NCBI GenBank assembly: GCA_002633005.1
Contig: NMRA01000256.1
Location: 176,068 to 240,067, forward strand
DNA length: 64,000 nt
Reading direction: 5' to 3'
From: Phoronis australis
Lineage: Eukaryota > Animalia > Phoronida
The position numbers and the translations under genes are program-made. Below the pieces are notes generated by a model. It saw nothing but the letters and a program-made list of their open reading frames with translations, did not search any database and was not told the DNA's origin. Positions 18,459-51,850 of the stretch are shown here, piece by piece. Positions within the stretch are counted from its first letter, which is position 1. Each line of letters starts with the position of its first letter.

Positions 18459-21400
18459 TCACTCCAAATCAATATAAGCATCATTTACTTTGCCTTTGTC
18501 AGGCACAACGTAATCACTACGTATTTTGTCTCGTTGTTGGATCTGTTGTCTTCCTTGTTTAGCTTCTCGTCTAGCATCCAAAACGTGAACTAATTTCTTT
18601 TTTATATCACTAAAATCCGGTCTTTCATCGGGTTGCAATTTCCAACAGTCCATCATCAAAGAATATCTGAAAAATGTCCATGGCCAGTACAATACTACTT
18701 CTAAGACAAAAATGATAAGCGACAACAACCGAGTTCTATGAACATATTCAAGAGAAAATTGAACTGTTTTACACTACTAGAAATAGTTTTATAATTTTGT
18801 TGAATTTTCATAATCTACGGCAGCATATTAGCAGAAAATCCAGGGTTTGAACCTGGGTCGGCACAAAGATTTTTGTAGACTTACATATAGGTCACGTGAT
18901 GTGACCAAGATATGAGGTGTATGAAGACTAATAATACTCACTTATACCAGAAAGAGTTTTTCATTGAAAGTTGATGATCATTCTAGAATGATAACATTTT
19001 AGAAGCGCACTCTTTGGCAGGAATCAATTTTTAATTTCATAGTTACCACGCTGCCTGTACTCCAACACACTCAAGAGCACAGGGTTTTACACTATAAAGT
19101 CCACATTGAACTGTAAAGCACTTACATGCAATATGCCTTGAGCATCACCATACATCTCAAATAACAAAAATCCATTCAAGAAAGCCTTTAACTGAAATGA
19201 AGAGGAAATGTGGCTAACATCTAATTGTTATCCGTTTCTATGTTCTGTAACTGACACACAACTTACGCGCTCTCAGGACAGTATTTCGGTTTGTCAAGAC
19301 GATATCCTGATACTAGGTAAGTTTTCATGCTGAAATTGTCTACGTCCGGATATGGCGGCTGTCCTCTTGTCACAAGTTCCCACAGCAAAACACCAAACGA
19401 CCACTAGAATAAAAAGAGTATAAGTGCTAATTGAAATGGAATCCGCCCTCATTTTATCATTGTTTTGGAGACCATTGCATAAGGCATATTATCTGAAAGT
19501 TTCAGTTGAATCAGTCATTTCTGAGATATATGATCTTCCGAATTTATCCTAATTTAAACATCTTTCTACGGTCTTACATACAATCATGTAACAACTGAAA
19601 CGTGTGCTATTCTTTCAATAGAACCATATTTCGTACATTTAACTCAACAGTGTGTTGATTGTTATGGAAAATCGCATGTTCATCTATGGAACCCGGAGGA
19701 CACCAACTTATTACAACATTACGATGACGTGTCCTCAAATTCGAACAAAAAATTGTTGCCAAAACATTCATTTTTTATTTAGATTTTCCAAAAACTCAAT
19801 GTCGTTAAAAATACTCAAATTTCATCATGTGTTTGTTGATGATGGATGTACAACATAAATTGTTCGAATTATGAAGCAAAGTTTTCTAAATTTTTTTTTT
19901 AGTTTAAAATTTTGTTAACATTTCAGTGTTCCGCCATGTTGTGTACTTAAAAACCTTTACCGTAACCTAAGTCCGCAGCGTGGTTAGACCCTTATTAGGT
20001 ACAAAGGTCCATAGTTGAACAACAATGTGTGCCGACCCGCGACTACAGCTCATGAAGGGAAAACGGTCCCAGTGTACAATTCACATGATATTTAAAGATG
20101 TTGTCTATTTTCAGTAAAGTCATACCACATCAGACTTTGAGGTGAATAAACCATCAGATAAACTCTCAACTGCCATCCATTTGATCGGAAGTGCGCGGGA
20201 TTCACCACTCAGGGAATAGTAATCTTTTTCATAAATGTCTCGCGACAAGCCGAAATCTGCAATTTTAACACACAGTGTTCTGTCGACCCTGAAAAATAAT
20301 ACCAATGGATTATTAAGATCAAAATCATGCATCTATTATTACGACGGGGTGAAAACAAAATGTCCAAGATTCCATCAGATGGCGAAAGCTTCCAAACTCT
20401 ATAAAAAGAACATTGCACGTATGTGAAAACTGCAAAACTGGATTTGAACTGAAAGAAAATCGCAATAACCGTCATATTTTTCGGGAAGAAAGGCGGGAAT
20501 TAAAGTTTATTCAATTTTAATGACAAAAGAAAATGTATCTTATAACTAAAGATCTCGTACTGACGAACACAAGTGCAAGTTTGGATAAAGACAACAACTT
20601 TTCTAAAATGTAGCTACATGTCTCGGTGGTAAAACATTCACCATTGTCGAGCTTTATTTAGAGAATGGATGCCAGAATGGCTATAGGTACAATACACAGA
20701 AAATTCCAAAGCACGCAAAAATACCAGAAAAGGACTGGCTAGCAATGTGCGAATCACAACTCAGTGTAACAGTGCCAACGACACATGGGAAACCTGTGCA
20801 TTGGGTGAAGTCGTTTCTGATAACCGAATATGAATGGCTTCACGCAGTTTGAAGCGATTATAGCGATTTAAGTATCACTGGCAATCATCGTAAAGTTGTG
20901 TTCCTCAGAGGCCTCTCTACAACCAACATTGCTTTCCAAGCGTCTAAGCATGTGTGAATTGTTATCACTAACTCAGTAGGTTTTCCTTCATCTTTGTAGT
21001 CAAGTGGCGAGTTGTGACAACAACTACAATGAAATTTATACACTACATGGGGATTTAAAGCGAAAAGAATCTTGTAAACTTCGCGATTAATGACAGTGAT
21101 ACTTAAATCGATATCGCTTGAAACTACGTGAAGCTTCACATTCGGTCTTCATAAACGCCCTCACTCAATGCACAGATTTCCCATGAGTTGTTGACACAGT
21201 TACCCTGAGCTGTGATTTGCTGTTTGTTAGCCAATCCTGTTCTGGTATTTTTGAGTGTTTTGGAATTTTCTGCGTAATTTACCTGTGTAGCATCCATTCT
21301 CTGAATAAAGCTGGACAATGGTGGATGTTTTACTGTCAAAACACGTCGTTACGTTTTAGAAAAGTAGTTGTCTTTATTCAAACTATCCTGTAATCATGAT

Positions 21401-24400
21401 CTACGACGGTGATTACGATCAAGAAATGGTGCAACGGTATCACAAAGTTGTTTATCAAACGCACGTTTTGTATTCAAGCCCCCATATTTCACTTACATGC
21501 AGTTTCGAGCTGCTAAATCACGATGGACGAATCTCTGACTGGATAAGTAAACCATACCATTAGCTACCTGAAGTCCAAATTCCATTAGCTCTGCCACCAG
21601 GAAAGACTGAAAACAACGTCAGACTAGTTCATTCTCTAGAAGAAGGACGACACCTGAGAAGTTTAGTACATATTTTTGTGAAGTGTTATTCAAAATCTAT
21701 TACAAGATTGTTTACGAGGCTAGCGCAAGACAAATAATCGAGATTAGTCGTCCAGTTCAACAATGATTCGTGCATTTTACGGATAGTGCTGGTGCGAATG
21801 GTCACGTCGCAAGTCGGGGAGTTAATCAAACTGTCTCCCCCCAAATATATCCATTGGACATACGCTTGCACTTACTTTTGAAGCACAGAAAAGGTAAAAA
21901 TGCCACATTTCCAATTACACGCCCCGAGCTTACTTTTTTCTCTGATGTTACGAGGTGAAGTCTTCTCAAGAGATGGCGATATGAAGGAGTGCATACTACC
22001 AAACATTTCGATGCGTGTCAAGATTACAACCTTCTATAGATATTATGCTCCAGGATGTGCATAACTTTTCAAAAATAGTCTCGAACCCTAACTGTATTAG
22101 CATTAGAATCTTGTGTGGCTCTGTGACACCTGGTTCAGGATTGGCCAATCAACGACGAAGTCAACCCACGGCTAAAATTTGGTCGTTTAATGCAAGAAAC
22201 CCATGGCAGTTTGTTCCCTTTACATTACTCCGTAGACAACGTTTCACTACAAATTGACGGGGAAACTGATTATTCATTAAGGGCCATGCACTGAGCTTTA
22301 GAACGCGTACGGCCATGCTTTGTTTTTGGCAGCATCTATGGAAATTAGAAGGTGCATGTTACCTTCTTGGGATTCAAAACGTAGCTTTTAAGATCGCCGT
22401 GCTCCATAAAAGGCAACACAACCATAGGCACGTCGTCCTTGATTACAATTCCGCATAGCGAAAGCACATTTTGATGACGGAAATCCTTCATCATCAGACC
22501 CTCCTCAAGAAATTCGGTCACCGTCGCTGCGGAGATATCAGCATCTACAACAACAGGAGAGCGGCGATAATTTAAAGTGACACAATACGTGAAAATATAT
22601 ATATTTTTGAGATCAGCACCACGACTGAGGCGACGGCTCTAAAACCCAGTATGTCCCTTCAATTAACCGTTAAATACAACGTCGATTGTTTGATCATGTT
22701 AAAGCTCCAGTCGTACATGTCATGCGCAAGGGAAAATAGTGAGGTTGTCAAGTGGCTGTCGTATGATATTTAAAAGTACGGCATTAAATGCATGGTAGAA
22801 GTTCGTCGTAAACTTTTGAAATTATACCGATATCGTACTTCAATCAGATCTGCGACAGGTCTATATCGTATACAGATACATTAATGACGCGAGAGATAAG
22901 TACCACGACCGTCCTACTTTAAGCGCAAGAGAGTCGTGCTGTTTCAACAGCTTACAGTTTTGCAAAGACATTTTAATGTTTTAGAAACACTCGTGTGATT
23001 TACCCTTCAAAACTTTGAACTCATCGCACGACAGACACAATCGTTCTCGAATGGATTTCTCGCGAGTTGATATCGAAGTTACTATGTGAAACTTGGTATG
23101 ACTTCAAGAATGCCCCAAAAAGCTACAAGTACAAATGCTACCCCTCAGTAACAAAAATTATAGAGCTGACGTATCGTTGTTTTGTATTGAACTTCACGAA
23201 TGAACACGAATGCTTGGTGTCGAGCTGCCACAGTAATTTAAACAGATATTAAGGATCCATGCAAATACCTCGTAACTGTTTCACTGCGACGTCTTTCGAG
23301 CTAACGAAATGTTCATCTAACAGCTCTGCCTTGATGACCTTGCCGAAATGTCCTTTGCCCAGCACGTGCTCCTCATTGAGAAGCAGACGATCGGGATGAA
23401 GCTGGCTAGCTTGAATGCGCATCTTGAGCACAGGATCCAATCTTTCCAAGAACTGCTTACGAATTACTGTATCATGAAATAAAAGCAACACGGACCGTTG
23501 ATAAGTGCCCACATTGTGCATCGCAAATGACAAAGTCATATTAAATGGGTTCTCATTTTTCAACATTTCCACGCACTACAACGAGATACGGGATGCAGTG
23601 CAAATCATTCGAAAATTGGCAACTGCAATCCTGCTGCATTGCGCCCTTGTTAGCTGTAAATGTTGAGTCCTTAATCGAAGCGCTTTGGGATTTAAAAGAA
23701 TAACCAGATTAATTTGATCCTGAACTATTGTCTAATGAGCCGACAGTGCAAGTCACAGGCAATGCGTATATGCGCCATTTTCGAATCCACAATTTTAAGT
23801 TCGGCCAACACAATAAACTCTGGAGCATTTTCTTGAGTCGCTAATGCATTAGATGTTCTTGTTGGTAAAGGAAGTAGAACCAAGCCGGTAGGAAACAATA
23901 TACGACCTCACATGCGCGTACCCAGGAGGGGGGGGGGGGCTCGGGGGACGAAGTGGGTAAAAAAGATCAGCCTCAGAGAAACAAAAAGTCCGAGCTAAAC
24001 AGGCCGAGATCTGGCATTAGGCCTACTTGCTTCAAGGGGTTTACTCTTGATCCATTAAAACTCCCACTAGGACTGTTCAAAAACGGGCAAGTGCTGCCCT
24101 CTCGTAGATAATATCCCATCTGTCAAATTTCATCTAACCTCGCAGATATTGCCAGAGAAACGTATAAAATTGAATCGACTACAAGGAAGGGGCAGCAGAG
24201 AACAGAATAGTAAAACAATCGACGCCATTTGTCAAATCTCGTAACAATGGCAGATAAAAAGGCGAATGCCAAACACAAATACCAAAACTACTAAAATTGG
24301 CGGGTAACTGAACTTGCTGGAGCCGTAACCAAATAGACAGGCACAGCCTTCTTCTATAAAAAATGCATCTGTCAAATTTCATGGAGTTTCTCCGAGGTTT

Positions 24401-27400
24401 ACGGTAGTTGTAGAGGCAGAAGCCGTGCACATACCAAGTCCACGTCAACGATCTCTTATAGAGTTGCTGGACGCAAGTTTGGCGAATAAGACGGTTAAAA
24501 TTACAATCAAGATTTTTGATCCGGGTACAACCAAGCCCCAAACCTCGTGTCCTAGCATACTCTCAAATCGCAGAAAAATAACAGGTGTCCGCATGGGAGT
24601 CTAAAACACTGGCAATCAAATACCAATAACCTCAACCATTTTATGGAAAAAAAGAAGATTCTGTGGAATCTCGCTCGCACAGTCTTGTCTAGTTTCAATT
24701 TCAAAAGATTAAAATTCAGCCAAAAATGGCAAAAACAAGGATTCAGCAACTTCAAAGTTCATCGTAGATACTTAGGCAGGGTCAAAAAAAATGTCACTTG
24801 GGAGAATGTCAGCCAATCAGATTCCCTAGAAAATCAACGTCAGATGTATTCTCCTCACTCTAGATGTATATCTCGTCAAATATACAATGATCCTTCACCA
24901 AACTTGAGGCAGTTGTAAAAATGTCACTAGGGAGCAATGTGATATTCACTGGTTCATCAGAAAACCAATGCCAGACATGTAGACCAATGGCCATTGATTT
25001 ACGAACTTAAGATTTCCACTAATAGTTGAAGGTGGCTCAGCAACATCCGGATTCATCCGAAATTCGTCATCTCTTATCATGTTCGCAGAAACGTGCCTGA
25101 CAGATTCCACGAAGGGGTTTAGGAGATACGGCTACAGACGCCGAACGCCCGGACGCTGAACAAAGATCATGTGACTACAAGATGTGTCCGCGTACATGGT
25201 ACATGCACGTGGGAGCATAAAAATCTCAGTTCAATATTTGTAAATAAAGACAAAATTTAATTATAAAGTAAAGCATTCATGTAGAATGGTGCCTCAGACC
25301 AGACCAAAGGAGCATTCTCTGTGCCGGTTAGTTGCATTTCACTAGATTTTTTCTCGCTGTGAAACATTTATTTAACTCGACCCATGACTGCATTATGTAG
25401 ACCCAAAACACTCGCGAGAAAATTATTGTGATCACTTTCTTGGGTTGTAAGGTATCACAATAAGTTGCAGACCTGCGTGATCTCGTGTTTTCGCGCGTTT
25501 CTTGCGTCTGCGACACACACGTTCAATTTACAACCCTGTCACCATCCAAGGTCTCCCGACTTCGGTAGACTACCAAGCCAGGATTCCAACTATGTGTTGT
25601 TCGGCCAGTGTATGGCTACACTTCGTATTCAGGTCAAAGTACTTTTGATCCAGTCATTTTCACAAGCAGGTTATGAAAAGGATAATGTTGTTAAGGCGTA
25701 CTTCGCAGCCCCAATTAATTTAAACAAAATTATTTCACAAGGTCTTTCAGTAAAACTTCAATGCACATTTCTGACATTCATCTCCAACAATCCTTTAAAA
25801 GGATACCAGACCCGGGTTTAGCCTTTTAATAGATACTAAAAACGAATTTACCATCCAGTTCTCTAGAACAAAGTAATGTTTGGTAATCCACGACAACCCT
25901 CAAAAGTTTGGAGGAAAGTTTGAAAACCCCTTTCAAAGTCTGCTAAACGGGCAAGCGTGACTTACGCTTTTAGCGAGTTACAAGACAACTGTGGGAAGAG
26001 TTAAAGACCACCCACCAAGGATCATAATGTCCAATTTGTGAGCTAGTGGTATGAGCTTTCAGTTAATTCCTGCTTTTGTCTGGTACGTTTGACGCCAAAG
26101 TTGCATTAACAGGTGACCGGGGAGAGCGAGGACTGGTTGAAATCATCACAGCAGGGTTTAGTATCCTTTTAACAAGTTCATTCAGGGCCCACTTGAAACT
26201 ACTAAGGAGAATAGCTGCTATTGTATCATGAAATACAACGAGAAATACAAACCTGGCACTTGATAGACATTTTCCCCCATGTCCCCTCTCTCGTTCAGAT
26301 ACTTCATGTACATACTTTCTTGTTTCAGCCGACGACCTTGTTTCCTTTTATTCAAGACTAAACAAACGGTTAAGGCCACAAAAGCCAAGATGAGGGCAAG
26401 TGCACCAAATCCGACTCCCATTCCAATTTTGAAAGCCTCTCTATCGGTAGATTTCCACTTCAAGAACCCCACGTTCACCTTGATATTTCCAACTTGCACC
26501 TGGAGAAAAGCATGTTTCCAAAAGGTCATTTTGACCTGTCATAGACTGCAAAGATCTGTGCAATTTGTGTGTAGTCTATCAGAGGTTCCTCTCTCTCCCA
26601 CACACATATAAAAAGAAGAATAGTTTGCTAGAGGTCTTACTATGCGCAAAATTTGTTGAATAAATCCCCGACAATGACGTCAGATTATCGGACGCCACAG
26701 TCGTTTACTAAGTTGTAGCAAATATCGTGTGCAAACACGCTTGAATGGACAGTCGCTCAAATTAAGCAGGATCGTTATCATGAAATTAAATTTTGCATAA
26801 AAGAATAGAAGAATTTAGAGAACCCTGAGCGAGTTGGCAGATGAAGTGCTCTTTCCAACGCATACATGTAATTGTTTATACCATACAAAAATTACGTGTA
26901 TTTGTGTTGATTATTTTAACTGCTAAAATATGCATGTTACCAGAGTCAAATTTGAAAATTGTGTCTATTTTATGATACTGTTTCTTTAATCCGCCTCTTT
27001 CAGAACACAACGTAATCCACAATATCAGCAAGTAAGAATAACCCAACATAGCAGACCAATGTGCCTGTGCTGCACCTTTGGATTTTCAAGCCTGTTAGCT
27101 GTAAGCGCGTTCGGGTCTTACTCGTTAGCGCGTTAAGCGAACGATTCCTAAACCAATGAACATTCATATCCACAAGATTACGTCACAAATTGCTGGTTGA
27201 GAATGGGTTGTTTACCAAGAATTGTACAATAGAAAAAAATGCAGCCACTTGACCTTTTCATTTATTATGCAGGGCGAACCTGATTCAAATTTTGACAGAC
27301 GCAGTGGAATCCGATAGTGTTGCTGTGTAATTGCTGACATGTTTTGTTGAGGTAACATTTGACATAAATAATGCATTCTGGGAAATGATGCCAGAGAAGA

Positions 27401-30400
27401 ACTCTGTGACTGAGTGGGACTAATCTCTTGTTTAGATGACAGTTTCAGAGACAAAGAGACACTACTTTCAGTCTGTTTGGCACGATACCCTTATGGTCTT
27501 GTCATGGAAATCTGGTGCCCCGAAAATTATCCAGCCAATAGGGATGAAACCATTTCCATTACGTCAGTTTATAAGTTCCCTATCCTTGATTTGATGTTAT
27601 ATTGAAGTTAGTGAATGATATTTAAAGAATAACGAACTATATGCAGGACATCGGAATCTTCGTCTAACAAAGTCAGAAGTTAAAAGCCGAAGCACTGCAA
27701 ACTGACAAAACTCGATACACCACTGAGACAAGCGAGCCGTCACATATATGTACAAGTGTACAAACTGATCCGTTAGTCGATACATGCAGGCCTAGCTTGG
27801 CACGCTAATGTGTGAAATCCGTTCGCGTTAACAACTGACAGGCTTGGAATTCCATAACAAAGCCGGTTAACGCGTTTTAATGCGTCCGGGGATAGATTAA
27901 TGCGCTAACGTGTAAACACTCGAGCGCGTCAACAAGTGACAGGCTTGAAATTCCATAGCAAAGCCAATAAACGCGTTATTTAATATATTCTGGCCTAGAT
28001 GATCGAGCTAACGTGAAAAACCCGTTCGCGTCAACTATTGACAGGCTTGGAATTCCATAATAAAGCCAATTAACGCGTTTTTAATACATTCGGGTCTAGA
28101 TTAACGCGCTAACGTGTAAAAACTTGTGCGCGTCAACAAGTGACAGGCTTTAAATTCCACATGTACAGATATTTACGCCTGATTTTATAGTATATCAGTT
28201 GGGAACATGTGCTTCAACCGACCTTCACATGGGGAGTTCGTCCAGTGCCAAAGTTGTTTTCGTCTACTTTGGGTTGAGATTCCGGTGGTCGACAGACGAT
28301 CTGGTTCGAAGATAGGTCTGTCACTGCACACTGAGCAGCAAGTCCCACGTAAACGGTGTAATCTTCAATGGCGCAGCCGTAATTCATACGTAAACCCTGT
28401 AGTGAAATCTTGCTTTGAAAACCCGATAACAACGTAGAGTAGATGACATTTATCATTTTCACGGTTTCCCACTCCACTGTTATGGGATTGTTAAAGCTGT
28501 TATGTACTAGCGTTTAAATTAGACCACTTACATTGCTTTGCTATGAATTTACATTTCATTTTTCCTAAATTTCACTAAAAAGACATGGTCACCAGACACA
28601 ATTAATAGCAGATTGGTATAATGTCAAAAAATCGACTTCTACCATCTTTCTTATATGCAGTTAAAATCTATAGTTTGTACATATCTGGTTAGACAGACAG
28701 ACATTTCCTACAGGCACGTACCGTATTTATCGGCCAAACCACCTAATTATCGAGTCTGGTCTCGCGTAATAGTATAACAAAGTGTCTGTTCATTTTAAGT
28801 CTAAGAATTAGCACCTCTCCTAATGTGAGTAGACTAAGGAGAAGGTTCAGACGAACTTTGTAACAGTACTTGGTCGAAATTAAAAGTTATCTTTTTAGGG
28901 AGGGCGATATTATGCTGCTTTACGAGACCAATTTGGAAAATTCACAGAATTCATGAGTTTAGTGTACACGTACTTGGGAAACAGCCTTTCAGTAGGATGG
29001 AGAACATTAATGAAGGTAGGCATGAGGCCATCAATACAGCTAGTGTCTTTGACGTAATTTCAACAACCAGACTTAAAAATGAAGACATTTATCAAGACCA
29101 AAAAAGCGGCAATTGCTGTTGTCAGTTGTTATTGTAATGCTTGAAAACAACTGTCTTACTGAGTTTGACCGCAGTTCCTGATAACAAAATGAGAGTTTTT
29201 AAAACAACTTTTGTTAATGAGACAAAGGCCTCTACCTTAATGGTAATGAAAGGCCTCTCCTTCGGATCAAACATCTTAACTTGACCAGGTTCCGTGAATT
29301 CGGATATAAAAGGATTTGAAAACACACGAATCCTTGAGTACTGTGGCAGGGATGAAGACAAGTTCGTGTAGGTCGGGACGCCATCTAGAATGAATCCTAA
29401 GTAAAACTCGAGATCGTCGTTGTTCAGTGATTGCTTGATCTGCTCCTCACGTTTTTGTCTTGATCCGTAGTTGTCAGGGAGAACGATATGCGGGGTTGGG
29501 CAGTCCATTGCGGTTGAATTTCTGACGGTGCAAATCTGAAGGAGAGTTACAGTGTATGTAAGATTATGTACACATACTCTAACCTCAATCAACGCCAATT
29601 TGTGAATGAAACATAAAGAGAACATTTCTCTAAAACAAAAAAATAGAACCCTGGTTTTTCTAACTTAAGTTTTGGGTTAATTTTTGTCACGACAAGAACG
29701 GGCACAGTATAAAGATTTCACTCGTTAATGACTCATCTTCCCTCGTAGATGACTCATCTAAAGAGTTCGAAAATTTTGGAACTTCCAAGCATTATTTACT
29801 TTACAACAACGTCCTATATGAGGGCCATTTATAAACGAAATCAATTTTGACCGAAGTTACCAAAGTAGGTCTTAGTATCTATTTAATATGACTGAATAAA
29901 AATCAAAGTTTTCAATAGCTACCGTGCTAAAAGTAGTAGAAGTGACGATGTACACCATTGTTGTAATCATAACTGGGGCGTACACTGAATCCAAGTTGCT
30001 CCCGTACACATGAAGAATGACGCCTCCTCTGAAATACAAGAGATTAAAATAGTGGCGGATCGAGGATAACCATAAGGCGAGGGGCCAGTATGTTGCCTCG
30101 GAGAATTGGGCAAAGCGCGATTGTATGTGCACAGGGAAAGTTGCGAGGGCCGGGGATGTGGACCTTCTATTCAGAAAAGCTATCGGTGGAATAAAAAAAA
30201 NNNNNNNNNNNNNNNNNNNNNNNNNNNNNNNNNNNNNNNNNNNNNNNNNNNNNNNNNNNNNNNNNNNNNNNNNNNNNNNNGGGGGGGGGGGGTGCGTTCA
30301 TCAGTGTAACCATGGGCGGTGTAGCACTGAAAAAGTGGGGCTATAGCCCCCAGCCCCTCTGTAGTGCACCGCCCATGGTCTAAGGCCCAGCGCTGAAAAA

Positions 30401-33400: not shown

Positions 33401-36400
33401 TGCCGGAAATATCCTCGCTCACAAATTTCACAGTTGACTCCTCTTGTGTTTTGTTGGCAGTGGCACTGATAAGTGCCGTTCGAAAATATCGTGCAATTAG
33501 ACGCATGACCGTTACATGCGCACCTAGTTGCAAAAAATAAACACACGCATTCATCGTTATTGCTCATGGTGCATTTTTGATTCTTCACTTCCCTGCACCT
33601 TCTTTTTATTTCGAAATATTATCATTATCTTTGAAAACTTTCATCTTAACCCTAAATAAATTCATCTTGAAGGCAGTTTTTCGTTTACCGTCGGCGTTTC
33701 CCTTTTCTGCTCTGTCGCCACCTACTGAGAGTTTTTTTGAAACGCGCAGCCAGTGTAATGACTCAAGGCCAATAAATTAGAGTCAGCCGTGAGTATGCAC
33801 ACTCATCACAGCGCTAAGGGCAGCCACCAGCACATGATTTGTGTTTTAAAAAGGTAAAGAAATCGTAAAAATATCTTTTAAACTGATCGTGGCGAATCTA
33901 CATCTTGAGGACTCTAACGTGAGAGTTATTCACTGTGAAAATTGCAAAAGTTTCAAGAAAAAAATGTCAGATGCACTATTTTTAAAACACAGACGAAATA
34001 TAAGACTCTTTCTTCCCAATACAGTTTCAAATTCCAGGCCTCTGATGTCATATGTCGGACAGGGTAGAGTTCAGTAGCTGACTAGGGGCGAGAAAAACCT
34101 AGCCAAAATCACGTACTCTCATTTAAAATACACTGCAATACCTCGCGTAATCTCGCTACGGCTAGCCTTTTTGTGAGGTCCTGGTATTATTGAACTCTAC
34201 CCTGTCTGCTGCTTGAAATCGCCATGGTTTTGCTTACATTAACGGTCAAATGTCGCATTTCCCATAGAAGAGAAATGTGCTACCTCTATGCCTTGGCATA
34301 CGAAATAAAAAGACGTGATTTACCTTGTGGGAGAAAAATCAACGAAGTGAGGGGCAGTTGACAGGTAGCTTTTTTAAATTTGAAACTATGGGAAAATGCT
34401 TTGAGATCAGCAGAAATCCAAATCGTTACGAACAACTGTAAAAATAACTGGTAAACAGTTTGACTTCTTTTTCAGTGGCAGAGAACCACTTTGAATATTT
34501 TAGTCTATTTTACACGTTGTAGGCCTCTGACTCTAGCCTTGAATCTCACTCACATTAATTCTACTTCAATCCAAGATTGTCTGAGAATACTCGTTGAAGG
34601 AAAGTAATTACGGCAAATGTTTTGGACAATAGTATACCATCCCAATGAATCGTCACACAAAAATCTGGAGGGGAATGTTTCGGGCCGCGAACGTCACTTC
34701 CAGGTGACGCATCAATCATGAATTAGAAACCGGGGACTTTAATAAACTTGAAAATTTATTCAGGATAACCAAAAATGGCAGGGTATAAAAAATACACTCA
34801 AACCCAATGTCTGCCCCTTTAAGCCTCTCAAATGATGTCACAATTTATTAATCTTTCAGCAGATGGTTATCCGACCATTCTAAATTGTGCCAAAATGTGT
34901 TCTAATGTTTTCTGTAGTTCATCCGTCGATCATCATAACTAAAAGACAAGTGAATATTGGAGCCTATCCTCTAGCATAATATCTTAGTTCTTTTAATAGT
35001 TAAATAATTAACAATTTTGAAATATATTTCCCAACAGTTACCTTCCATTTACAGCGATCTCCTGCACCCCAAACCAGGCTTCTCCTTGACCGTTATTAAG
35101 AATAACTCGCACGTGACGCGCTAAACCTCGGTAAGAATCACTTGGATAAAGGGGACTTAGATCTATTCTGAGAGTATAGACGTCCGTGAGGTTTGGCCTG
35201 GTATATAAAATAAAAACAGCAAAACGTTTAAACTCAAGAAAGAACACTGCATCCACAAATTTTAAAGTTGGAAAATAATTCAGAAAAGATCACGTCCAAA
35301 ATCCGTACCTCTGAGTCGTTATCACAATACGATTTATTCAATTTGCCTCAACAAGTGACCACAATTATCAGTAATGTTCCTTATGTACAGTGAATAGGAA
35401 ATTGTTACCCCACGGAGCATTTACTAATAGCAATGATAATAATAATAACATTTTAAGTTCTACAAGATGAGGACAAACTATTTCAATTATGCATCTTTCT
35501 TGTCATTTACTTACATAAGGGTGCATGTCGGCGTGCTAATGTTAGGCAATATTCCATCGCAGAATGTGGCAAATTTCACCCACGTTTTCCACTCAGTGGC
35601 CAGATTGTTTCTGTACTGAATTGTCGCTGAACGATAGCTACTCTTGAGCTTGCTGTGGTATGAAACTGAGGCCACTAAGACAATAACCTACACAACAGAA
35701 GACAAGCACATAGATCACTATCTGTCGCTAAGGACTCTTCGTAAGTTAACCAACATGTATTTGTTCCCAATGAGATTAAAGACAGAGAAATGATTCAACG
35801 GTGTGATTTCTTACCTCAAAATCCTGTTTCAAGTCCATAACGATACTGGCATTATTCATGTACGAGCTGGTCCATGTTGTATTCTGGCCGTCGTTGATCA
35901 GAGACGGGGTGCTGTCGTAAGCGAGTCTCGAAACAACGTTGGAGATTTGTGGAAAATCGTTAGTCGCACACAACGTGTCATTCAAGAACTAGAAAGGTCA
36001 TCAGAAGATAAGTCATCAATCGGTTATTGTAAGAAATGTTTGGCGTAAACTCTCTCCAGGTTTATGAAAAATAACCTTCTGATGCCAAATTGATGCAAAT
36101 CCTGTCTTGAACTCACCTTAACAGCAAAAAGAGAACTTCGGCAATATTCCACGGCAGATTGATCCGGAGACAGTTTCATGGAAAGTGACTTAAGTAAGAC
36201 AGAAATTTGATCTTACGCACCATAAAACGTATTATAAAAATTAAATCTCGCTTGACCAAAAATGCCAAGTCTGTCAGAATATACCCGTAACTGCTAGTGA
36301 CTGAGAAAATTTCTATGAATTATTTCAAGACTATGATGTTATACAGTTAAATCATCATCAAGCCACCGTGAAGAGGGAGCTTAAGATGACATCTGTGGAG

Positions 36401-39400
36401 AAGTCTTAAAGTCACTTTTCAATTTTGCTTCTATAGCTTAGGGACGTTCAACTAATATATAGGCTACAGATACGACGTTAATTTCTAAAATATAACTACA
36501 ACACTGTACGTGTGCTTATTCACACGTGTTAGTCAAGTTATCTTATTTCAATTCTTGACAGAAACTTCCAGTGCTATTTTAAACTACGGAAGTGGTAGAT
36601 TTGTATGACACAGCAATGACTGCACTTTATGGGGGCAATAAACCTTCCTACTACCACAAAACCAATTTGCTTCACACGACTTTCCGTAATGAAATTGGTC
36701 TCAAACTGCTCACATTTGACGTTGAAGTTGATTTACTTGAGAAAACTGATAGCTTGCTGTTGCTTGAGACAAGGCTCTGCAAATTGTCTTGTCACGGCGG
36801 GTCATTTTATGCACTTAACATGTTCGCAACGAACAACTATCTTCAAGTTCTTTGCAAATCAGAAATCATTAGCCCATCTCATTCAGAACAATTTGAGATC
36901 AATTTTACATTGGTAAATGGTCTCAATCAAAAGTTCGTTTGTTAGAAGAAAGACGGAGTCGTAACTCCTTGAAAGGGACATAATGAGGGAGAAAGGTTAT
37001 GTTTTAAGTCAGCCTCAGCGCGGAATAGAACATGCAACCTTTGCGTTTGCAGACCAACGCTCGGCTCTCGGAGATAAACACACTAGATAAACGACAAAGT
37101 ATCTTAAACAGTACACACCATGGATTTTTGCACATTTTGAATTACCGGTGGCCACAGACTGAATGTATGACGTAAAATTTAGCTAAACCCATGTTTATTT
37201 TGTGTAATTAGCTCAAAATTTTGATTTTTCTTTCAATTTTGCCAAATTTCACATTTCCCGCCATGTGACGTCATGGGTTGAACACAAGAGATCAGTGACT
37301 AGCATTGAACAATGGCGGAGACCAGGGAATTTGAAAGTGACGACGATTAAGAGCAAGAATTGAACGAATACTATGAAGAAACGTATGGGAATGGTGGCCA
37401 GGATGAGGAAATGGGGTTGCACGAAAGCGAGAACAAGTTTAATGTGCTTCCGGCTGCGTACTTTTCTACTTTGAGCCTTATGAACTGGATCCTCCCGCGA
37501 GAGAAGCGGCCTCGGGCTCGGCGAGTCAACCCAGTCATCCAACAGACGATCCTGAATTAAGAGCTGATGTTTCTGAATGATAAATATTGTCCTTTATTGA
37601 ACCAGGCCTTCATCGTAACGTCTCATGTGACTGGAGTCGAAACACGAGTCCTCAAAGTGGGCAGAACACAGAGTGGCCCCGGACCGAATCGCTTGGTCCA
37701 CGATGACGTCCCACACTCTCGTTCGGCGCACGAAGTCATGCCACTTCTGCGCAACTTTGGTGTCCTTCGGAACACCGAGACGTTTTCCGCCTGGCTGCTG
37801 TTGCTGCAGCCTCCGGAAACACATCTTTTGATCCCTCTACGAACCTTCTCGACGCTAAATGTACTTTGCATTCTCTTCACTCTATACACTTTGTCTCTGA
37901 TCCGAACGGTATTGCGAACGACTTGGGTTCAACCCATGACGTTGTACATAATTATTATTTTTTTCAATTTTTGCGTGTTTCTTTGTGAGCTGTGCACTAA
38001 AGGCACTGAAATCAAGTAAGATATAATAATAAAATTTATTTTGAGGTACTAGAGTACGTCATGTTGTGTACACTTTAAACATTTGTATGTGTTCGATACA
38101 TTGGCCTTAATTACAGGCCAGCGAATGTGTGGCAGACAACGACGGGAATTGCTGGTTTGTAGTAAGATCGCATAACATCAATCTATTCCGTCCAACAAAA
38201 AATCCGAAAATTACTGTTTTCGGCTGTAAAATCTATAATTATGTCTTCTTCATTTTCGTGTCAATACCTTTGGGAAATCAGGCGGACATCTGCAACTGGC
38301 GAGATCCAGCATGCCATGGTCTGGAAATGATCCGGAGTAAACTTCTTCGATTTCCCTACTTGTAAGTATTTTCTCGTAAAATCTGAAGTCTTGAATGTGT
38401 CCCAGGAAGACGTCTGTTAAGAAATAGATAGAAGTGACAAAGCGGTGGCGTTGGGGATTTCATAAGGTACCTCGTATAGGTCTAAAATGTAGGCTACTTG
38501 TTATGTAGTCTAGCGCACTGCATGAGAAAGAAAGAAGGTGTCTTCAACTATTAATAGGAAACTCATCAAACTATATATTCTAAAAATCCTTCGGAGTCAC
38601 AGAATTATATTCTGTGCATGAAAACAATGTTCAGAGGTACCTTATCAAGTGACAGCATTTTTGTCAAATATCACAATTTTAACGGAGATCGCTGTAATTT
38701 CCACAAATTCGGGTTTTTTCGCTCAAAACGTCCAAATTCTGCTGTTTTATCTTATTAGCTACGAAACTGTGTCTGGGATTTCTTATTAAGGCCTTTGAGC
38801 TCAAGAAATCCGATGTCAGATTTTGACGTCTTGATTTCTGACAGCAGATTTCTCGGGCTAAGATGTCCTAAAGCGAAATCACAGACACCATTTTGTACTT
38901 ATAGAACACAGACACAGAATTTGAAAATTTCGTTGACGTCGAAATCATATGTACTGTCTCTTTCACTGTTATTGAAGTGGGTGAAGGTTGCGGTGTTCTT
39001 TGTGATTGACAGAATTTTGGCTGTAAGAGTTGCATTTGTTGCATACTGAAATTTGTACCTATTCCTGGTGAGTTGATCGACTCTCTTGACAAATGACTGG
39101 AGAGTTCTGAACATGCAGTGCTTGGCCCTTCTTCCGTGCTTGGTGTAGCTATTGGAGACAGATTCGGGGTTGTGATGTCGGTGTCTGTTGCGTAATAAGA
39201 TATTATCGATTCCACTTGTAGTTGGTGAATGTTTCATTGGTGTTTTTGAGTGCCGTCAGAATTTGGTGTGTATGGCTTACATCTGTTGCTGTTGTATGTT
39301 GAAAGAAAGTGCTCCCTGCTCGTGATGAAATTTGTTCTGATACACCAGAGCTAGTTCTCTTAGCGAGTACTGATTTCTGAACTGGAAGTGGATATAAACT

Positions 39401-42400
39401 TATTAGGTGAGACCGCTCGCTTTCGTCTTATATTTCTTGTCTGTGGTGTGGTAGACATGCCTAACGCAATATAAAATTATATACTTTTCATAAGTTTCAA
39501 AAAATAATTTAAACATGTAACGGTTCTTTGTCAGCAGCTGTAAATAAACGTGATTCAAATGCAACACTTTTGGAGACGGGGAAAAGCATTGTATTACACT
39601 GTTTTAACAAAAGATCTCCAGGTTGTTTCAGAGCACAAGTGGGGTGTTTTCGATAAAAAAAATCTTACCGTCCGGCTTTATGTATCCGGCTAGAGTAAAT
39701 GTTTGATTATCAGAGATCCATGCGTCAGATTTTAATAAATCCCTCTTGTGCCAGGTCTGCACTCCGTCGATGGATACCGTTACGTCTGGAAAACTGAACT
39801 GTAATTGGGAGAATGTTGTAGCATGAAAATGGAGAACAACAAACAATTTTATAGCTTTTTAAATTTCAGTTTTTAAACAGGAACAACGCAGGAACTTTGA
39901 AATGCGCCCACGCCAGCATTGCAAACGGTGTGGTTCTTGGGATGTTTACTTGTACCATAAAAATGGATGGCTCAGAATACCCTGAACTCATCCGAAAATG
40001 GTAAGGTGTCGTCATCTCTACCTGCTTTCAAGTTAAAAGGAATACAATTGCAAGGTTTCAAAAACATCTTGGAAGAGGTTTAGGAGATACAGCCATAGAT
40101 GCGAAAAATGTCACTACGGGGCACCACAGTAGTTGTAACCGCTTGCTTGAAAATCTACGTCAGTCATGCTGTTGTCATTAGGAACACATCTACCAATTTT
40201 CATGATAATCTGCACGGTTTGGCAGATACAGAAGAAAATGACAAAAACAGATTAATAATAATTAAATGGTCACTAGATGGCGCAAAATCCGAAAACAGGA
40301 ACATGTCATCGGTTCTTTAACAGAAAGCAATTTACCTAATTTCATAAAAATCTATCAAGGAGCTCCAGAGAATGAGAGTAAAACGAAAAAAATGAAATTG
40401 CCACTAGGGGGTACACCATTCGTCGGATCCGTTTGAAAACCGTTGTCAACTTCATATAAATATACTTGCTAAATTCAATAAAGATCCTCTAGAGGGTTTA
40501 GGATATACAGTCATGGGCGTAATAACTGCCCTGGAGAGACGCCACGGAACTCAAAGTCTTCGGAAAATCATCGTCAGCCGCCCTCTTCACAGTAGGAACA
40601 TATACTGTACGTCAAATTTTACTATCATCCTTAGAGTGCTTAGGCTATTAGAGGAGCAGACGCTAAAAACAGACTAGAAAACAGTAAAAATTGTCCCTAG
40701 GTGTAGCAATGAATCCATCCAAAAACGGGAGGATAGCGTCACCTTCTTAATAAATACACATCTGCCAAATTACATGAAATTTCGCTGAGGACATTTGAAG
40801 ATACCGAGCTAAACGTAAAAAATAAAAATCGCCACAAGGGGCACAACAGTAGCCCGATTCGTCCGAAAGTCATCATCATTCGTAGACAACTTCACCTAAA
40901 TACACTTGCTGAATTTAATAAAGATTCTACAGACGTTTAGGATCGAGATACAGACATGGGTGCAAAAACAAACAAAGCTGATACCAGTAGGCGTCACAGT
41001 AGTCAAAGTCGTCGGAAAATCATCATTAGCTGCCCTCAGGACAGTAAGAACATATATACCAATTTTCACAATCATCCTTAGAGTGGATTGATTGATAGAG
41101 GGGCGGACGCCAAAAACAGTAAAAACTGCCATTAGGTGACATGACATACCTCAAATCCACCTGAAAATGGAAGGATAACATCATCTCACAAACAGATGCC
41201 TAGCTGTCAAATTTATGAAAATCCATTAAGGACCTCCGAAAAAACAGAGGTAAACGTAAAAAATTAAAATTGCCACTAGGGAGCACACCGGTTGTCGGAT
41301 CGGTCAGAAAGTTCGCTCATGAAGTTCTATCTAAGAACAGAACATATCTGCAAAATTTCAGTAACATGCATTGAAGGGTTTTGGAGATAGAGTACCGGAC
41401 GACGGACGTCCAACGGACGCCAGACCGACACCGGAAGGACGCCGGCCGGACGCCGGACCGACACCGGACGGACGTCGGACCAACGCCGGATTGACGGAGA
41501 TGACGGCATAATGCGCTCACATATAAGTATAGCTGCACCAAAAAATGCTAGTACATTGTTAGTCATCATCTCATATTCGATGTTGCTTTGGTACAGATGA
41601 ACTATGTGCCCAGTCGTATTCATTACCACTTTCTCACCATTCGGCAACTTTATCGCCAGTGAGCATCCCCATTCACCACACCTGCAAAGACCGTACAAAA
41701 ATGAAACAGGCGATACAATGGTAGTCATATATGTTCAAAAGTCTGTTGTCACGTTCACAAAAATGCACAGGCCAACTTTCACAGCTGCGGATGCTACAAA
41801 ACCAAACTGCCACTAGGGGGCGCCGCAACAGTCAAACTGTCTAAAAATTGCAAACCATGCTCTTCCCAGTATGAACACATTTACCAAGAAAACAAAATTG
41901 CCACTAGGAAGCGCTATAGTAGTTGGTGTTGTCAAAAATCGTCGTCAGCCGTCCTCTGCCCAGTAAGAGCATATATGTCAATTTTCATAACCGGCAGACA
42001 GAGGCGCGGCCGCCAAAACAGACTCAAAAATAATAAAAACGGTTACTAGGCGGCGTGCACTACGTCAAATCCATCTGAAAACGGAAGATGCCATCACCTC
42101 TTTAATAGAAATCTATTTGGCAAATTTCATAAGAGTCCGTCAAGTTACTCCAAAAATACAGAGGAAAACGGGAAAATAAATTTGCCACTAGGGGGCACAG
42201 CGGTCGTTGGATCCGTCCAAAAGACATCGTCACCAATTGTCACCTTTATGTAAAACCACTTGCCAAATATAACAAAGTTCTTGCCGAGGGTTTAGGAGAT
42301 ACAGCTATGAATGCAAAAAAACTGCCACTGGGAAGAGACGCTGTAGTCGGAACTATCCGAAAAACATCGACAGCCGTCTTCTGTCAAGTAAAAAAATGTA

Positions 42401-45400: not shown

Positions 45401-47469
45401 ACTGGAGTTCTACAGTTGAAGCAAATAATCACCTTCATCTAGCCCATGTAGAATTAGGAATGCATGCTCGACGTAAACGAATTCTGCCACCTTAAACAAT
45501 GGTTTCTACATGTGGCACTGCCTGAGGCACTGTCGTTCCAAGTCGTCAACTGCAAACCACGATAAAATTGTAACCTCAGGACTGTCATCGGAAATGAGAG
45601 GGTCTCGGAAATATACTTGCTAGAGCTGAAAGTTGGATTATTATTCCGTGTGCTGTGTGTGTAGAGATGACAACATCAGATAAACATCGCCCTGATTATT
45701 TCCAAACGTTTTCGTAACCCCAACGTCACGGGCTCGTACATCAAGATAATTTTAAGAAAGGTATTAACCTGTCCATTTGAAAAGATTAAGTGTGCGTATC
45801 TTATGTTCGAAAAGAGGCTCTAACAATCAACGAAGCAGGATATGTACGTCTGCTTTCTTCGTACAAAAATAATTGCCAAAATTTACTTTTGTTTTATTCA
45901 AAGGTTTTTTATCTTGCTGCAAATCATAGCCAGTTACTGAAATATTGTTTTATGACGTCCGATGTAGGTTGCATAAAAGCTATACCTTGAATATGATTAA
46001 TGGCGTGTCATGATACCATTATTGAGCAATGTACTGGACGTCATGCAAAAATCGAAGTTATCCAGCTGATAAGTTATAAAGTTTCATGTAACCCAACCTT
46101 GCATAGTACAGAACAAGCTAATGATAAACTACGGTAAATTTTTCTTAATCTTTATCTTTGATGAGAATTTTGACAACGTGAAATTTCACCTGTCCGACAT
46201 ACCGTACGCAATTACTTTTTACCTGGAGTGTGACGTGAGTCCACCGTCCAAGAACGATCGTCCACAGCATGTCGGTCAGGGTAAATGTTGGATCCTTGAC
46301 CGAACGCTGCTGCAGAAGTAGTGTGTCGTTGAGAAGTGAACACTGCATCACCCAAGAGTTCGTTTGGACTGTGAATACGTGGCTGAAAATGTTAAAAGTT
46401 GTACGAGTGGTACAAGCCATTGCCCCGATCACCTTTCAAGTTTATAAAACGTTTGAAATTACAATCCTGACTCGTGTTCGCTATGAAACGCAATTTTAGA
46501 TTGAGATTGGTTTCAACAACGTTGGTTTACACAGAATGTGATGAAATTAAATTAATAAAAACACAACCGAACATGACGCATATCACTACCGTACTAGTGC
46601 TGCAGATAAAAAGCGATTCTATTGAAACTTCAGCAGGGATAGATGCAAGAAACTCAACGAAAAGCAAAATCACTCATGATCACTCATAATGACGTGAGTG
46701 AAAGGTATCGTGCAATGATGACAGGCACTAAAATAATTGGTTAGTAAGGTTGCAATGTTGAATTATGGGATATAATTTAGTATTTCCGTTCCATAAGCGA
46801 AGAATTCTCACCGCAAGAGCTTCACGAGTATCATGAGTCTACGGAAGGGTACGCACCCCAAAACACGAATTGCAAATGCCAATCAATGCTCGAGTTTTCT
46901 GCTATTATTTATCATGGAGCTTTCCCGTTGTTTTTCAAAACCGCCTCAAAGCAGAAAACGCAAGCCGTGTTTTGTGTAACAGATTAGTAGCCTACTGTGT
47001 TTTTCAGGTCTTCATTTGAAGAATAAATTAAGTATGCATACCGTGTAATATTGTCTGTGATATTGTGTTTTATCCAAAAGGTCGCCGTCGACTGTTGTCC
47101 GATAATAGAATGATTCATTTTAATAGGCTTTTCTACGCAACGCGTTATTCCGCTGTAGTAAAGTGCCTGTCCTGTGCTCCTGCTTCTCACAGTCGCCCCA
47201 CAGCTCCACTTTGACGAAGTAAGTACGTCGATGTATTTCGGTGTAGACGTTCTTGTTGTACACACCTTGGGGCTGCAGTTTAGTTTCCTTTGTTGGCTCA
47301 AGATGACTTCTCCAGAACAGGAGACAGAAGCGCCGTCTGGATTCTCGTTTACAACCACCGGCTTACCGAGAGCCACGTTGAATTCTCGAGGATACCACAG
47401 ACCGGACGCGGAACCATCTCGGATGCCGCAACATGACCACACCAGGAAGAGGGCAGCGTAGTACCACAT
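18459..47469 (-). CDS. MET/RON-like receptor tyrosine kinase with usherin-like ectodomain (signal peptide, LamG-like, LamNT, laminin-EGF x1.5, IPT x3, TM, kinase), 20 coding exons, about 1254 aa
   Basis: Phase-consistent GT-AG exons: 47042-47469, 46223-46382, 39669-39798, 38268-38413, 35815-35988, 35515-35687, 35042-35197, 33256-33523, 31511-31641, 30690-30863, 29923-30028 (donor uncertain), 29236-29535, 28223-28396, 26253-26499 (TM), 23269-23466, 22363-22544, 21497-21606, 20126-20288, 19267-19403, 18459-18666. Sum 3765 nt. Kinase motifs [63 protein letters not shown] are MET-type. IPT motif [11 protein letters not shown] possible extra 5' coding exon lies at 49863-49873. Confidence 0.88.
24770..25222 (+). 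mobile_element. Diverged copy of the HINE-like repeat family
   Basis: GTCACTTGGGAG and GTCACTAGGGAG subunits, GGTTTAGGAGATAC, GGACG tract and terminal hairpin-like end. Confidence 0.4.
27800..28160. repeat. About 101-bp tandem repeat, about 4 copies, with an inverted copy near 27075-27140
   Basis: TGACAGGCTTGGAATTCCATA or close variants recur at about 27836, 27938, 28039 and 28141. Confidence 0.8.
30201..30280. other. Assembly gap (80 N) between poly-A and poly-G runs inside an RTK intron
   Basis: Run of N characters. Confidence 0.99.
30310..30378. mobile_element. Small palindromic MITE-like repeat
   Basis: CCATGGGCGGTG...CACCGCCCATGG inverted ends; partial second copy to about 30435. Confidence 0.5.
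31819..33115 (+). mobile_element. Kolobok-like non-autonomous DNA transposon with about 310-bp TIRs and a frameshifted THAP domain
   Basis: TTAA flanks, AG...CT termini, long inverted repeats 31819-32125 / 32813-33115. THAP remnant [10 protein letters not shown] // [15 protein letters not shown]...EHF...RLKKGSITS. Confidence 0.8.
37108..38074 (-). mobile_element. Kolobok-like element with frameshifted THAP domain
   Basis: TTAA at 37104 and 38075; ends ACAGTACACACCATG / CATGTTGTGTACACT; subterminal inverted CATGGGTTGAAC. THAP remnant RCVSGGCSN // [14 protein letters not shown]...[11 protein letters not shown]. Confidence 0.75.
39960..42595 (+). mobile_element. Two adjacent HINE-like arrays (about 39960-41543 and 41690-42595) with about 430-bp higher-order periodicity
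   Basis: About 15 subunits, each with a GCCACTAGRGGGC-like core; (GGAC/CCGG) tract at 41395-41500; same family as 15-16.3 kb and 62 kb. Confidence 0.65.
42600..42900 (+). mobile_element. Penelope-like element 3' fragment (GIY-YIG endonuclease C-terminus)
   Basis: [11 protein letters not shown]...[19 protein letters not shown]...LNRDRG matches the PLE endonuclease tail; followed by a hammerhead-like fold. Confidence 0.75.
42847..42888 (+). ncRNA. Degenerate minimal type I hammerhead ribozyme associated with the Penelope fragment
   Basis: P1 TTCA/TGAA, core TCGATAAAG (consensus CTGANGA), P2 ACCTGG-CGGA-CCAGGT, GAAA, CG, TC cleavage site. Confidence 0.5.
42971..43199. mobile_element. Solo right end of the Kolobok-like family seen at 31819-33115
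   Basis: GACCGAACTTATCACAACCGAGGTA...GTCTGGGATAATCAAC...GGTTGCCTTCACCT|TTAA matches 32887-33115. Confidence 0.75.
43256..44915 (-). mobile_element. Kolobok-like non-autonomous element with THAP remnant
   Basis: TTAA|AGGAGCATGCCACCC ... GGGTGGCATTCTCCT|TTAA. Minus-strand remnant from ATG 44743: [11 protein letters not shown]...ISLFYF // PRESEMLRK*...LRVC. Confidence 0.75.
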
Positions 47470-49035
47470 GACGAATTTACGTCTATACTTGCAACAATGG
47501 TAGTTACAGCTGTAAAATAAATATGGTTATCACTTAAGTAAATACTTGAAACGGCATGTTGATAAAACTCAATGAGGTTAAGACGCAAATATAGGCCTAT
47601 CAGGGTGTGCGCGTGCATTGAAACAGATGTTACATAGCTTTATAGAATCAGTTTAGAGATCATTATCGTTTTACGGCCAAAACGCATTTTGCGAGTTTTG
47701 TTGGGTGAGGCAGACTGATTAATAAAAGTTATTATCAGCTTTGGATCGACCAGAGCTACAAAACCATAAAACCCGACATTTATTGAAACCAAGGCCAGTT
47801 TATTTGCCAATGATATATGCTAAATCCCGTTTATTGAGTGAGATTTTGCTTAGTCAGAAGGGCGTTTGGTTGCTACAAGCGAAGGTTCCGGTTTCGAATG
47901 TGCACTAGCGGTGTTCTCAGAAAACCACATTCCGCCGATAACGCCACATTATCAATGTCCTCTTTCGTTGCTTGATAGATTGAATATTATATCGATGACA
48001 ATTTGATTGCAGCCAACACACCGTTTCATTTATCGCAGGTCCTTTGATTTTGTTCTGTACAGTATACGGTATCTGATGCCCGCACACTACTCGAACTAAA
48101 TGCTGGGGGTGTTCTTCCTCAGTTATAACCAACGGGAAGTTAGGCAGGGTGATGAGATATCAATCCTTGAAATAGGACCTTTTTAGAATCTCCTTTAAGG
48201 AAAACGTCTCGTAATGCATCTAGCCTCATATAGCTATTAAATAAATCCCTCGGAGGAGTTATTTTGAAAAATGTCACCGTTTGATTGAACTGTCTAGGTC
48301 ATAAGAATTAAAAAAGGTGCTTCATTCTGGTTAACGATGCATGTTAAATAATTGCTATCTTTTTAATTGCAGCCAACTAACATTGTTGTATCACGACATA
48401 TCACAGGTTACAGTAAAACGCCTGGAATAAACCTTGTGACACTTTTGCGGCTGAATCTAACTTGCCGGGTCATATTTGAAGCAAAAACTAACCTGGTACA
48501 CTCAAGCTTTGAAATCAGTTGCGAATTGGGATGGGAACGAAATGGGTACTGCACCGACAATACCCAAGTTGTTTTTGTCTAAAGACACGGGTTTAATGCA
48601 CCTCTCCTAACTTAAAAGCGTTCAATGATCTAAATGTTACTCTAATTATGTAGATATTTCAATGTCTAAAGTAATAAAAAATGAAACTAGTGATAGGTCT
48701 ATATATGTAAGAGTAGAAATTCCGTTGTTTGTGGGTTTAAACTTGACGAAAGAAAACCGATAAGCTCAAATTCTGCTTGTCGTCATCTCCCAGTCTGCTC
48801 GAACCGAAGTTTTGTATGAACCCGCTTAAGTGACGGGGCCTGGGTTTGCTCACCTTCGTCATTCCCACGATGGCGCGGTCTTTGGGAGGAAGGCTTACGA
48901 CATAATTCAGGGTGTTCCAAAGTTCACGTATTGATGCTCACAATGACCTTGTTTGTGTGTGTGTGCGTACCGTAAATGAAATTAGAGCATTGTGGAGGCC
49001 GGCTGTCTGCTCCTAAACGTTTCGGAATGAATGGA

Positions 49036-51229: not shown

Positions 51230-51850
51230 ACATCATAAATTTAATAAGTTTACAGACATGCTCCATTCCTGACAGAACTTATTTAAAGCACACAGTAGTT
51301 TTTGCAGTTAACTGGAGCGTAAGCGCACAAGGTCGTATCGTCGGCATAACTGTATGACAATACTTTTACATCAGAGACATTTTGACTTAAAAATACCATC
51401 GTCATTACTAGAGTGGATACATTCTATAAATTCATTCAAATACAATGTAAACAAAAGAGGGCCTAACAAACAACCTTGCCTAGTGCCAATATTGAAATCA
51501 AAAGCAGCAATTTTACCAGTCCGCGCTCTCACAAACGTCCGAAGTTTGCTATACGTTGATTGTAAAGTTTTTAAAAAATCACCTTGAACTCCAACATTTT
51601 TTAATCTGAGCCAAAGCAACTGATGGGGAATATTGTTTAATGCTTTAGAAAAATCAGTGAATGCACAGTAGAAACGATGTCCTTGTTTGCTTATGTACTT
51701 TTGAACTATAGTTGACAATGTAAAAATTTGGTCGACAGTGCTGTATACCTTTCGGAACCTTGCTTGACATTCAAACAATTTAATATTCTCCATGGCCCAA
51801 TCAGTAAGGCGCACATTCAAATTTTTGTAAAAAAGTTTCCAATCACTGGC
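51230..51850 (-). mobile_element. Decayed LINE reverse transcriptase fragment
   Basis: ORF 51371-51904: QARFRKVYSTVDQIFTL, AFTDFSKA, IGTRQGCLLGPLLFTLYLNEF (non-LTR RT motifs); truncated. Probably the same clade as 16.8-18.3 kb. Confidence 0.85.

Follow-up and report, generated by a model that had tools for sequence, protein, structure and literature searches.

The 64,000-nucleotide window of Phoronis australis DNA analysed here (contig NMRA01000256.1, positions 176,068 to 240,067) harbours a gene of 20 minus-strand exons, which run from an ATG at 47469 to a stop codon at 18459 and constitute a single open frame of 3765 nt encoding 1254 residues (Table 1). With the exons placed by coordinate, the frame is free of stops and every intron follows the GT-AG rule. 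The predicted product comprises, in order, a signal peptide (judged by hydropathy), a LamG-like domain, an LN domain, one and a half laminin-EGF (LE) modules, three IPT domains, one membrane helix, and a tyrosine kinase. The first-pass annotation, made from the letters alone, had proposed exactly such an uninterrupted 20-exon frame from a signal peptide to a MET-type kinase, and both parts of that proposal were borne out. A 21-exon alternative with an extra 72 nt at 36117-36188 keeps the frame too and would yield 1278 residues, but RNA excludes the candidate exon: depth is zero over 36059-36300, and 16 reads (5+4+7) join 35988 directly to 38268, where exon 4 ends. Within the window none of the exons is duplicated, and third-position GC differs mildly between the usherin-type exons 1-8 (0.52) and the MET-type exons 9-20 (0.46).

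Table 1. Exons of the chimeric gene, its junction intron, and neighbouring features in the window
Feature	Coordinates	Strand	Residues	Content and basis
Exon 1	47042..47469	-	1-143	Signal peptide (by hydropathy), cysteine-containing cap, LamG-like from aa 98 (by profile); ends in phase 2; stranded RNA depth 13 in run X4
Exon 2	46223..46382	-	143-196	LamG-like; 160 nt, phase 2 to 0
Exon 3	39669..39798	-	197-240	LamG-like; 130 nt, phase 0 to 1
Exon 4	38268..38413	-	240-288	LamG-like end and cysteine linker; 16 reads splice to 35988
Exon 5	35815..35988	-	289-346	First part of LN domain
Exon 6	35515..35687	-	347-404	LN domain
Exon 7	35042..35197	-	404-456	LN end; intron within Arg456, before Cys457
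Exon 8	33256..33523	-	456-545	Complete laminin-EGF (8 Cys) and shortened one (6 Cys)
Junction intron	31642..33255	-		1614 nt, phase 0; 19 joint reads, 3/3 runs
Exon 9	31511..31641	-	546-589	First IPT start, equivalent to MET IPT2
Exon 10	30690..30863	-	589-647	First IPT end, second IPT start
Exon 11	29923..30028	-	647-682	Second IPT, partly by eye; 80-N gap in upstream intron
Exon 12	29236..29535	-	683-782	Second IPT with insert and furin-type site; third IPT start
Exon 13	28223..28396	-	783-840	Third IPT; Pfam TIG 0.0035, under cut-off
Exon 14	26253..26499	-	841-923	Stalk end, membrane helix (~865-889, by hydropathy), juxtamembrane start
Exon 15	23269..23466	-	923-989	Juxtamembrane, glycine loop (959), catalytic lysine motif (982)
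Exon 16	22363..22544	-	989-1049	Kinase alphaC to hinge; top solved-structure match MET
Exon 17	21497..21606	-	1050-1086	Intact catalytic loop
Exon 18	20126..20288	-	1086-1140	DFG and activation loop with Y1105, Y1109, Y1110
Exon 19	19267..19403	-	1141-1186	Kinase C-lobe; top match MET, RON second
Exon 20	18459..18666	-	1186-1254	Kinase end, tail with Y1238 and Y1250, stop
LINE-type fragment	51374-52009	-		Upstream of the gene; reverse transcriptase, Pfam RVT_1 1.5e-12
Repeat family	40000-42600			In the 6.4 kb intron 2; dispersed, ~440 nt; strongly one-stranded RNA from related copies
THAP-domain remnant	37597-37836	-		In intron 4, second such remnant (Pfam 1e-5); high RNA depth from related copies
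Inverted-repeat element	31814-33120			In the junction intron; ~1.3 kb, ~200-nt terminal inverted repeats, inner inverted pair; THAP-like remnant (E 0.004); one end recurs at 43043-43206
Tandem array	27780-28159			In intron 13; 3.7 copies of a 102-nt unit
Inverted-repeat element	20578-21384			Between exons 17 and 18; about 800 nt
Ion channel exons	187-10378	-		Downstream; Cys-loop ligand-gated channel; Neur_chan_LBD 2e-12 at 9851-10378, Neur_chan_memb weakly at 2686-3132 and 187-558

The RNA data consisted of contig set X1 (a small share of it) and three raw short-read runs (X2-X4), all from one study, with alignment over 28000-47600 at 92% likeness and over 28200-36300 at 98% likeness. RNA junctions across 33256/31641, the check proposed in the first-pass annotation, are present: 19 reads from all three runs (2, 4, and 13 reads) are spliced there, with 1, 4, and 5 start sites and a shorter side of up to 73, 57, and 70 letters, respectively. 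No competing loose end was seen at either side of this junction among the rows listed. All eight introns inside 28200-36300 appeared as CT..AC RNA joints, and the intron upstream of exon 11 was spliced across its 80-N gap by 14 reads from two of the three runs. Of the loose ends, those at 35990 (5+4+7 reads) coincide with the end of exon 4 and those at 28221 (4+12 reads) with the start of exon 14, which encodes the membrane helix. The observed splices link exon 4 to exon 14 in a chain of short reads, none of them gene-spanning. In the 92% alignment, intron repeats dominate the joints, and exons 1-4 rest on stranded depth rather than joints; the exon bins over 28000-47600 contain reads on one strand only, exon 1 in X4 being an example. 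Overall the RNA depth is low: in a fifth of each run, an exon position is covered by about 2-25 reads.

Repeats are found in several introns (Table 1), and RNA from copies related to the junction-intron element comes from both strands. A transposon-driven origin of the join was considered and is unsupported, similar THAP-bearing or inverted-repeat elements being found in other introns too. The 80-N assembly gap lies 1.3 kb from the junction intron. Within exon 3, one X1 contig differs from the genome at 10 places in the 26 nt of 39699-39724, changing seven residues of a LamG loop; it may stem from a divergent allele, from a paralogue, or from an indel that was misaligned.

The head of the protein (residues 1-545) was characterized mainly with profiles. 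Exons 1-7 taken singly gave no meaningful Pfam match, and PHROGs and NCBIfam searches with the N-half exons returned nothing significant. A home-made LamG profile was built from 15 prokaryotic LamG domains, of which 11 came from loci collected with a seed protein and four from the plasmid of that seed; the seed, a protein matched by exon 4 at E=1, was itself excluded. Residues 98-268 scored 34.5 bits against this profile, a value reached by none of 500 shuffles (best 5.8), and still 16.6 bits when exon 4 was left out (0/500 shuffles, best 3.7). Residues 289-454 scored 14.2 bits (0/1000 shuffles, best 4.1) against an LN profile derived from the four of five laminin-like metagenome loci with a long enough LN stretch (Pfam Laminin_N). 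Compared with its counterpart in human usherin, this LN domain lacks about 40 residues, and its score is weak; in pairwise tblastn on its own the region was not significant, with 21 of 300 shuffles reaching the score. Exon 8 matched Pfam EGF_laminin (PF00053) at 1e-10 over two stretches, its best solved-structure matches being netrins and laminin short arms, and the LamNT and laminin-EGF regions claimed earlier were recovered by the LN profile and by Pfam. The second laminin-EGF module retains six of eight cysteines; because the published pairing is 1-3, 2-4, 5-6, and 7-8, none of the six is left unpaired.

Other searches with the head contributed little, and usherin was not among the proteins they returned. 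Solved-structure searches with exons 4 and 5 gave nothing useful, the structure prediction of residues 21-142 alone was unusable (pLDDT 33), and a profile search with exon 1 hit three repeat-rich unrelated proteins that were dismissed as chance. The metagenome locus scan yielded five laminin-like loci, two of which (L003 and L005) showed weak kinase matches on separate stretches; the prokaryote genome scan yielded none among 228, and the viral contigs gave a single weak locus, which lacked LamG.

According to the available portion of PMC7317166, the N-terminus of usherin is ordered LamG-like, LN, and LE, and missense mutations of USH2A cluster in this region. The same order was found at the N-terminus here. 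In addition, the intron positions were compared with human USH2A, whose exon ends were taken from variant names in excerpts of published papers: c.485 (PMC5606877), c.651 (PMC3678402), c.784 (PMC4173666), c.1143 (PMC6836415), and c.1550, in intron 8 at Arg517/Cys518 (PMC9918427). With 12 residue anchors drawn from the variant papers and PMC7317166, paired by eye, and a tolerance of 24 nt chosen with the data in view, all five boundaries were matched in the same phase, at offsets of 15, 9, 6, 21, and 0 nt. When seven introns were placed at random 200,000 times, 13 placements matched four boundaries and none matched five, one of the boundaries sitting on an anchor. Independently of the anchors, exon 2 (160 nt) and exon 3 (130 nt) are close in size to USH2A c.486-651 (166 nt) and c.652-784 (133 nt), and the intron at Arg456 before Cys457 parallels human intron 8. 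An extra intron at cds 864 is without a USH2A counterpart among the compared boundaries. Outside the count of five, the intron at cds 1211 presumably fits the USH2A boundary c.1328. By domain order and literature intron positions, rather than by aligned usherin sequence, the head is usherin-type. The claim that about 545 N-terminal residues follow usherin is supported in domain order, with the refinement that the LE region has only one and a half modules, the second with its reduced set of cysteines.

The body (residues 546-1254) was easier to classify. Pfam recognized PK_Tyr_Ser-Thr on six exons and TIG on exons 9, 10, and 13 (3e-6 at best), with only exon 9 above cut-off, and none of the 21 pieces scanned with Pfam matched Sema or PSI, as the first-pass annotation had anticipated; IPT1 is gone as well. 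Among solved structures, exon 16 matched MET best (55 bits, followed by MER at 47 and RON at 41), as did exon 19 (MET 62, RON 56, RYK 50 bits), and exon 18 gave a tie between ROS1 (55.5 bits) and MET (55.0 bits). The expected MET-type kinase was therefore found, and by best hits rather than by a tree it is closest to MET/RON as far as sequence comparison reaches. The C-half exon sizes and phases also resemble those generally given for MET, a likeness not counted as evidence here.

Exon 9 marks the start of the stalk. Its best match is MET 657-699, with plexins behind, and MET residue 657 is the start of the published IPT-delta-1 construct and of IPT2 (accessible part of PMC2475716), so the join is placed at the IPT1/IPT2 boundary. 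About 310 residues lie between the junction and the membrane, corresponding to three IPT domains and not to MET's four. Exons 10 and 12 showed no MET match against solved structures; exon 12, without a Pfam or PDB match of its own, was assigned to IPT by position and by-eye comparison with Aplysia Met. A furin-type site at residues 708-711 lies inside the insert of the second retained IPT and is polymorphic, R711H removing its last arginine in 9 of 21 X4 reads.

In the kinase, the glycine loop, catalytic lysine, catalytic loop, and DFG are all intact, and the activation-loop tyrosines Y1105, Y1109, and Y1110 are spaced as in MET Y1230/1234/1235. MET carries a two-tyrosine docking motif near its C-terminus, which served as the comparison for the tail. 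The tail tyrosines Y1238 and Y1250 are 12 apart and without a Y-x-N motif, their spacing and context being unlike those of MET.

The locus is one transcribed gene with an usherin-type head on a MET-type body; it was likely assembled by exon shuffling and likely encodes a receptor switched on by a matrix or cell-surface partner bound to the head. Its origin would be the joining of 5' exons of a duplicated usherin gene in front of the IPT2-starting exon of a MET-family gene, by exon shuffling in a phase-0 intron, with Sema, PSI, and IPT1 replaced. The chimeric receptor put forward in the first-pass annotation is upheld with respect to the single transcribed gene and the types of its two parts, and the phase-0 junction at a domain boundary is consistent with the shuffling it had assumed. 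Excerpts of the literature report in vitro binding of usherin LE repeats to collagen IV and fibronectin; usherin LN-LE3 has been modelled on netrin bound to FN3 receptors. By analogy, the LN/LE rod might bind a collagen IV-, fibronectin-, or FN3-type partner, whereupon the receptor would dimerise or cluster, Y1105/Y1109/Y1110 would be trans-phosphorylated, and docking would be opened at Y1238/Y1250. Cleavage at the furin-type site might shed or loosen the head.

The nature of the activating ligand admits another answer. The non-HGF ligand suggested at first is insecure, since deletion of residues 25-741 leaves human MET able to bind HGF and to respond to it through IPT3-4 (available portion of PMC2475716), domains that are kept here among the three membrane-proximal IPT domains. 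An HGF- or plasminogen-like kringle protein acting on them, with the head positioning the receptor or gating access, is nevertheless rather unlikely: the divergence of the second and third IPT leaves exons 10 and 12 without a MET match among solved structures, the second bears a long insert, and a head of 545 residues with paired cysteines has been kept. It is improbable that the kinase works independently of a ligand or depends on a partner, through self-association of the LN/LE rod or as a co-receptor of canonical MET. MET lacking exons 7-8, with IPT1-2 rearranged, is auto-active in glioma (accessible text of PMC4469304), and usherin LN-LE3 has been modelled as a crossed dimer; the glioma variant, however, keeps Sema and stays inside the cell, and the LN-LE3 dimer is a homology model.

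A slimmer chance still is given to a chimeric duplicate that is transcribed yet dispensable and drifts free of selection for any function. The low RNA depth would suit such a duplicate, as would the diverged X1 contig of exon 3, the single-exon protein searches that returned no relative, and the three of seven exonic X4 variants that change a residue, one of them in the furin-type site. Against it, 1254 codons in 20 exons have remained without a stop or frameshift despite the far-diverged head, the cysteine pairs and catalytic residues are kept, and four of the seven X4 variants, a small sample, are silent. Most improbable is that the locus consists of two genes or was misassembled around the repeated inverted-repeat element of the junction intron, an 80-N gap lying nearby: RNA reads of three samples bridge 33256 and 31641 at CT..AC, their shorter side reaching 70-73 letters, and others are spliced across the gap, contradicting the separate transcripts or misassembly that the first-pass annotation had set against its own model.

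The chimeric, head-activated receptor therefore remains the preferred reading, and its architecture is likely new. Full-text literature searches found no described combination of LamG-like, LN, LE, IPT, and kinase, and single exons, used as queries for homologues among longer proteins, matched 0 of 309, 0 of 64, and 0 of 7 candidates, a weak result in that a kinase exon failed likewise. Because these protein searches used single exons and gave no relative, novelty is likely rather than shown. Automated annotation may already list the protein under a generic name. The amphioxus kinome (D'Aniello 2008) and the sea urchin receptor tyrosine kinases (Lapraz 2006) may include similar receptors. The architecture is absent from the available parts of PMC3516229, PMC6374515, PMC8662651, and PMC4224354; judging from its accessible text, PMC6374515 would miss this gene because that survey covered Sema-containing proteins only. 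The accessible portion of PMC4729200, including two supplements, makes no mention of usherin, and that of PMC9654511 holds nothing on the architecture. Swapping of receptor tyrosine kinase ectodomains is a recognised process (excerpt of PMC8662651).

The gene is an RNA-supported natural chimera of two well-studied human disease-gene families, whose parts meet cleanly where a domain boundary and an intron coincide. Should the head act as the sensor, a tyrosine-kinase receptor would be read by laminin/netrin-type domains, and it would offer a ready reporter for binding partners of the usherin LamG-LN-LE region. The gene also provides a natural setting for asking whether Sema can be dispensed with when MET signalling is rewired. 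A tentative and somewhat doubtful extension is that an undescribed conserved class exists in which an usherin matrix- or link-binding head drives a MET-type kinase, coupling basement-membrane or ciliary-link attachment to growth and motility signalling; such a class, if real, would provide an enzymatic read-out for partners of the usherin N-terminal domains.

Compared with known systems, the gene combines features of several families. MET and RON are built as Sema-PSI-4xIPT-TM-kinase, whereas the gene here has an usherin-type head in place of Sema, PSI, and IPT1; it resembles MET in the best match of its kinase, the spacing of its activation-loop tyrosines, a stalk beginning at the 657 equivalent, and two tail tyrosines. 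The furin-type site is located in the second retained IPT here and in Sema, at 307/308, in MET (excerpt of PMC4469304). Aplysia Met, by eye, carries a basic cluster in an IPT insert too, so the site is not decisive as a sign of a plexin-B or Met-LP stalk origin. Like usherin, the protein has LamG-like, LN, and LE after the signal peptide and shares five intron positions and phases; usherin, however, continues to 10 LE, an LG pair, 32 FN3, and a short PDZ-binding tail, of which only 1.5 LE occur here, and it lacks the IPT stalk and kinase. Like the Met-LP receptor tyrosine kinases of echinoderms and lophotrochozoans, the gene places a MET-like kinase under a different invertebrate ectodomain, but the ectodomain of Met-LP is that of a complete plexin, Sema included (available part of PMC6374515), whereas the present one is free of Sema and PSI. 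Met-LP shows that the MET-like kinase module has recombined before, and, from the sequence likeness, the donor of kinase and stalk may have been Met or Met-LP. With netrins and laminin short arms the protein shares LN followed by LE; in those proteins LN comes directly after the signal peptide, whereas here a LamG-like domain precedes LN and a kinase is added. As a general rule, netrins and laminins are not known to carry a LamG-like domain in front of LN, and none of the laminin-like metagenome loci examined has one in the same frame before LN. By defining architecture, the gene belongs to neither the MET nor the usherin family and is built from both.
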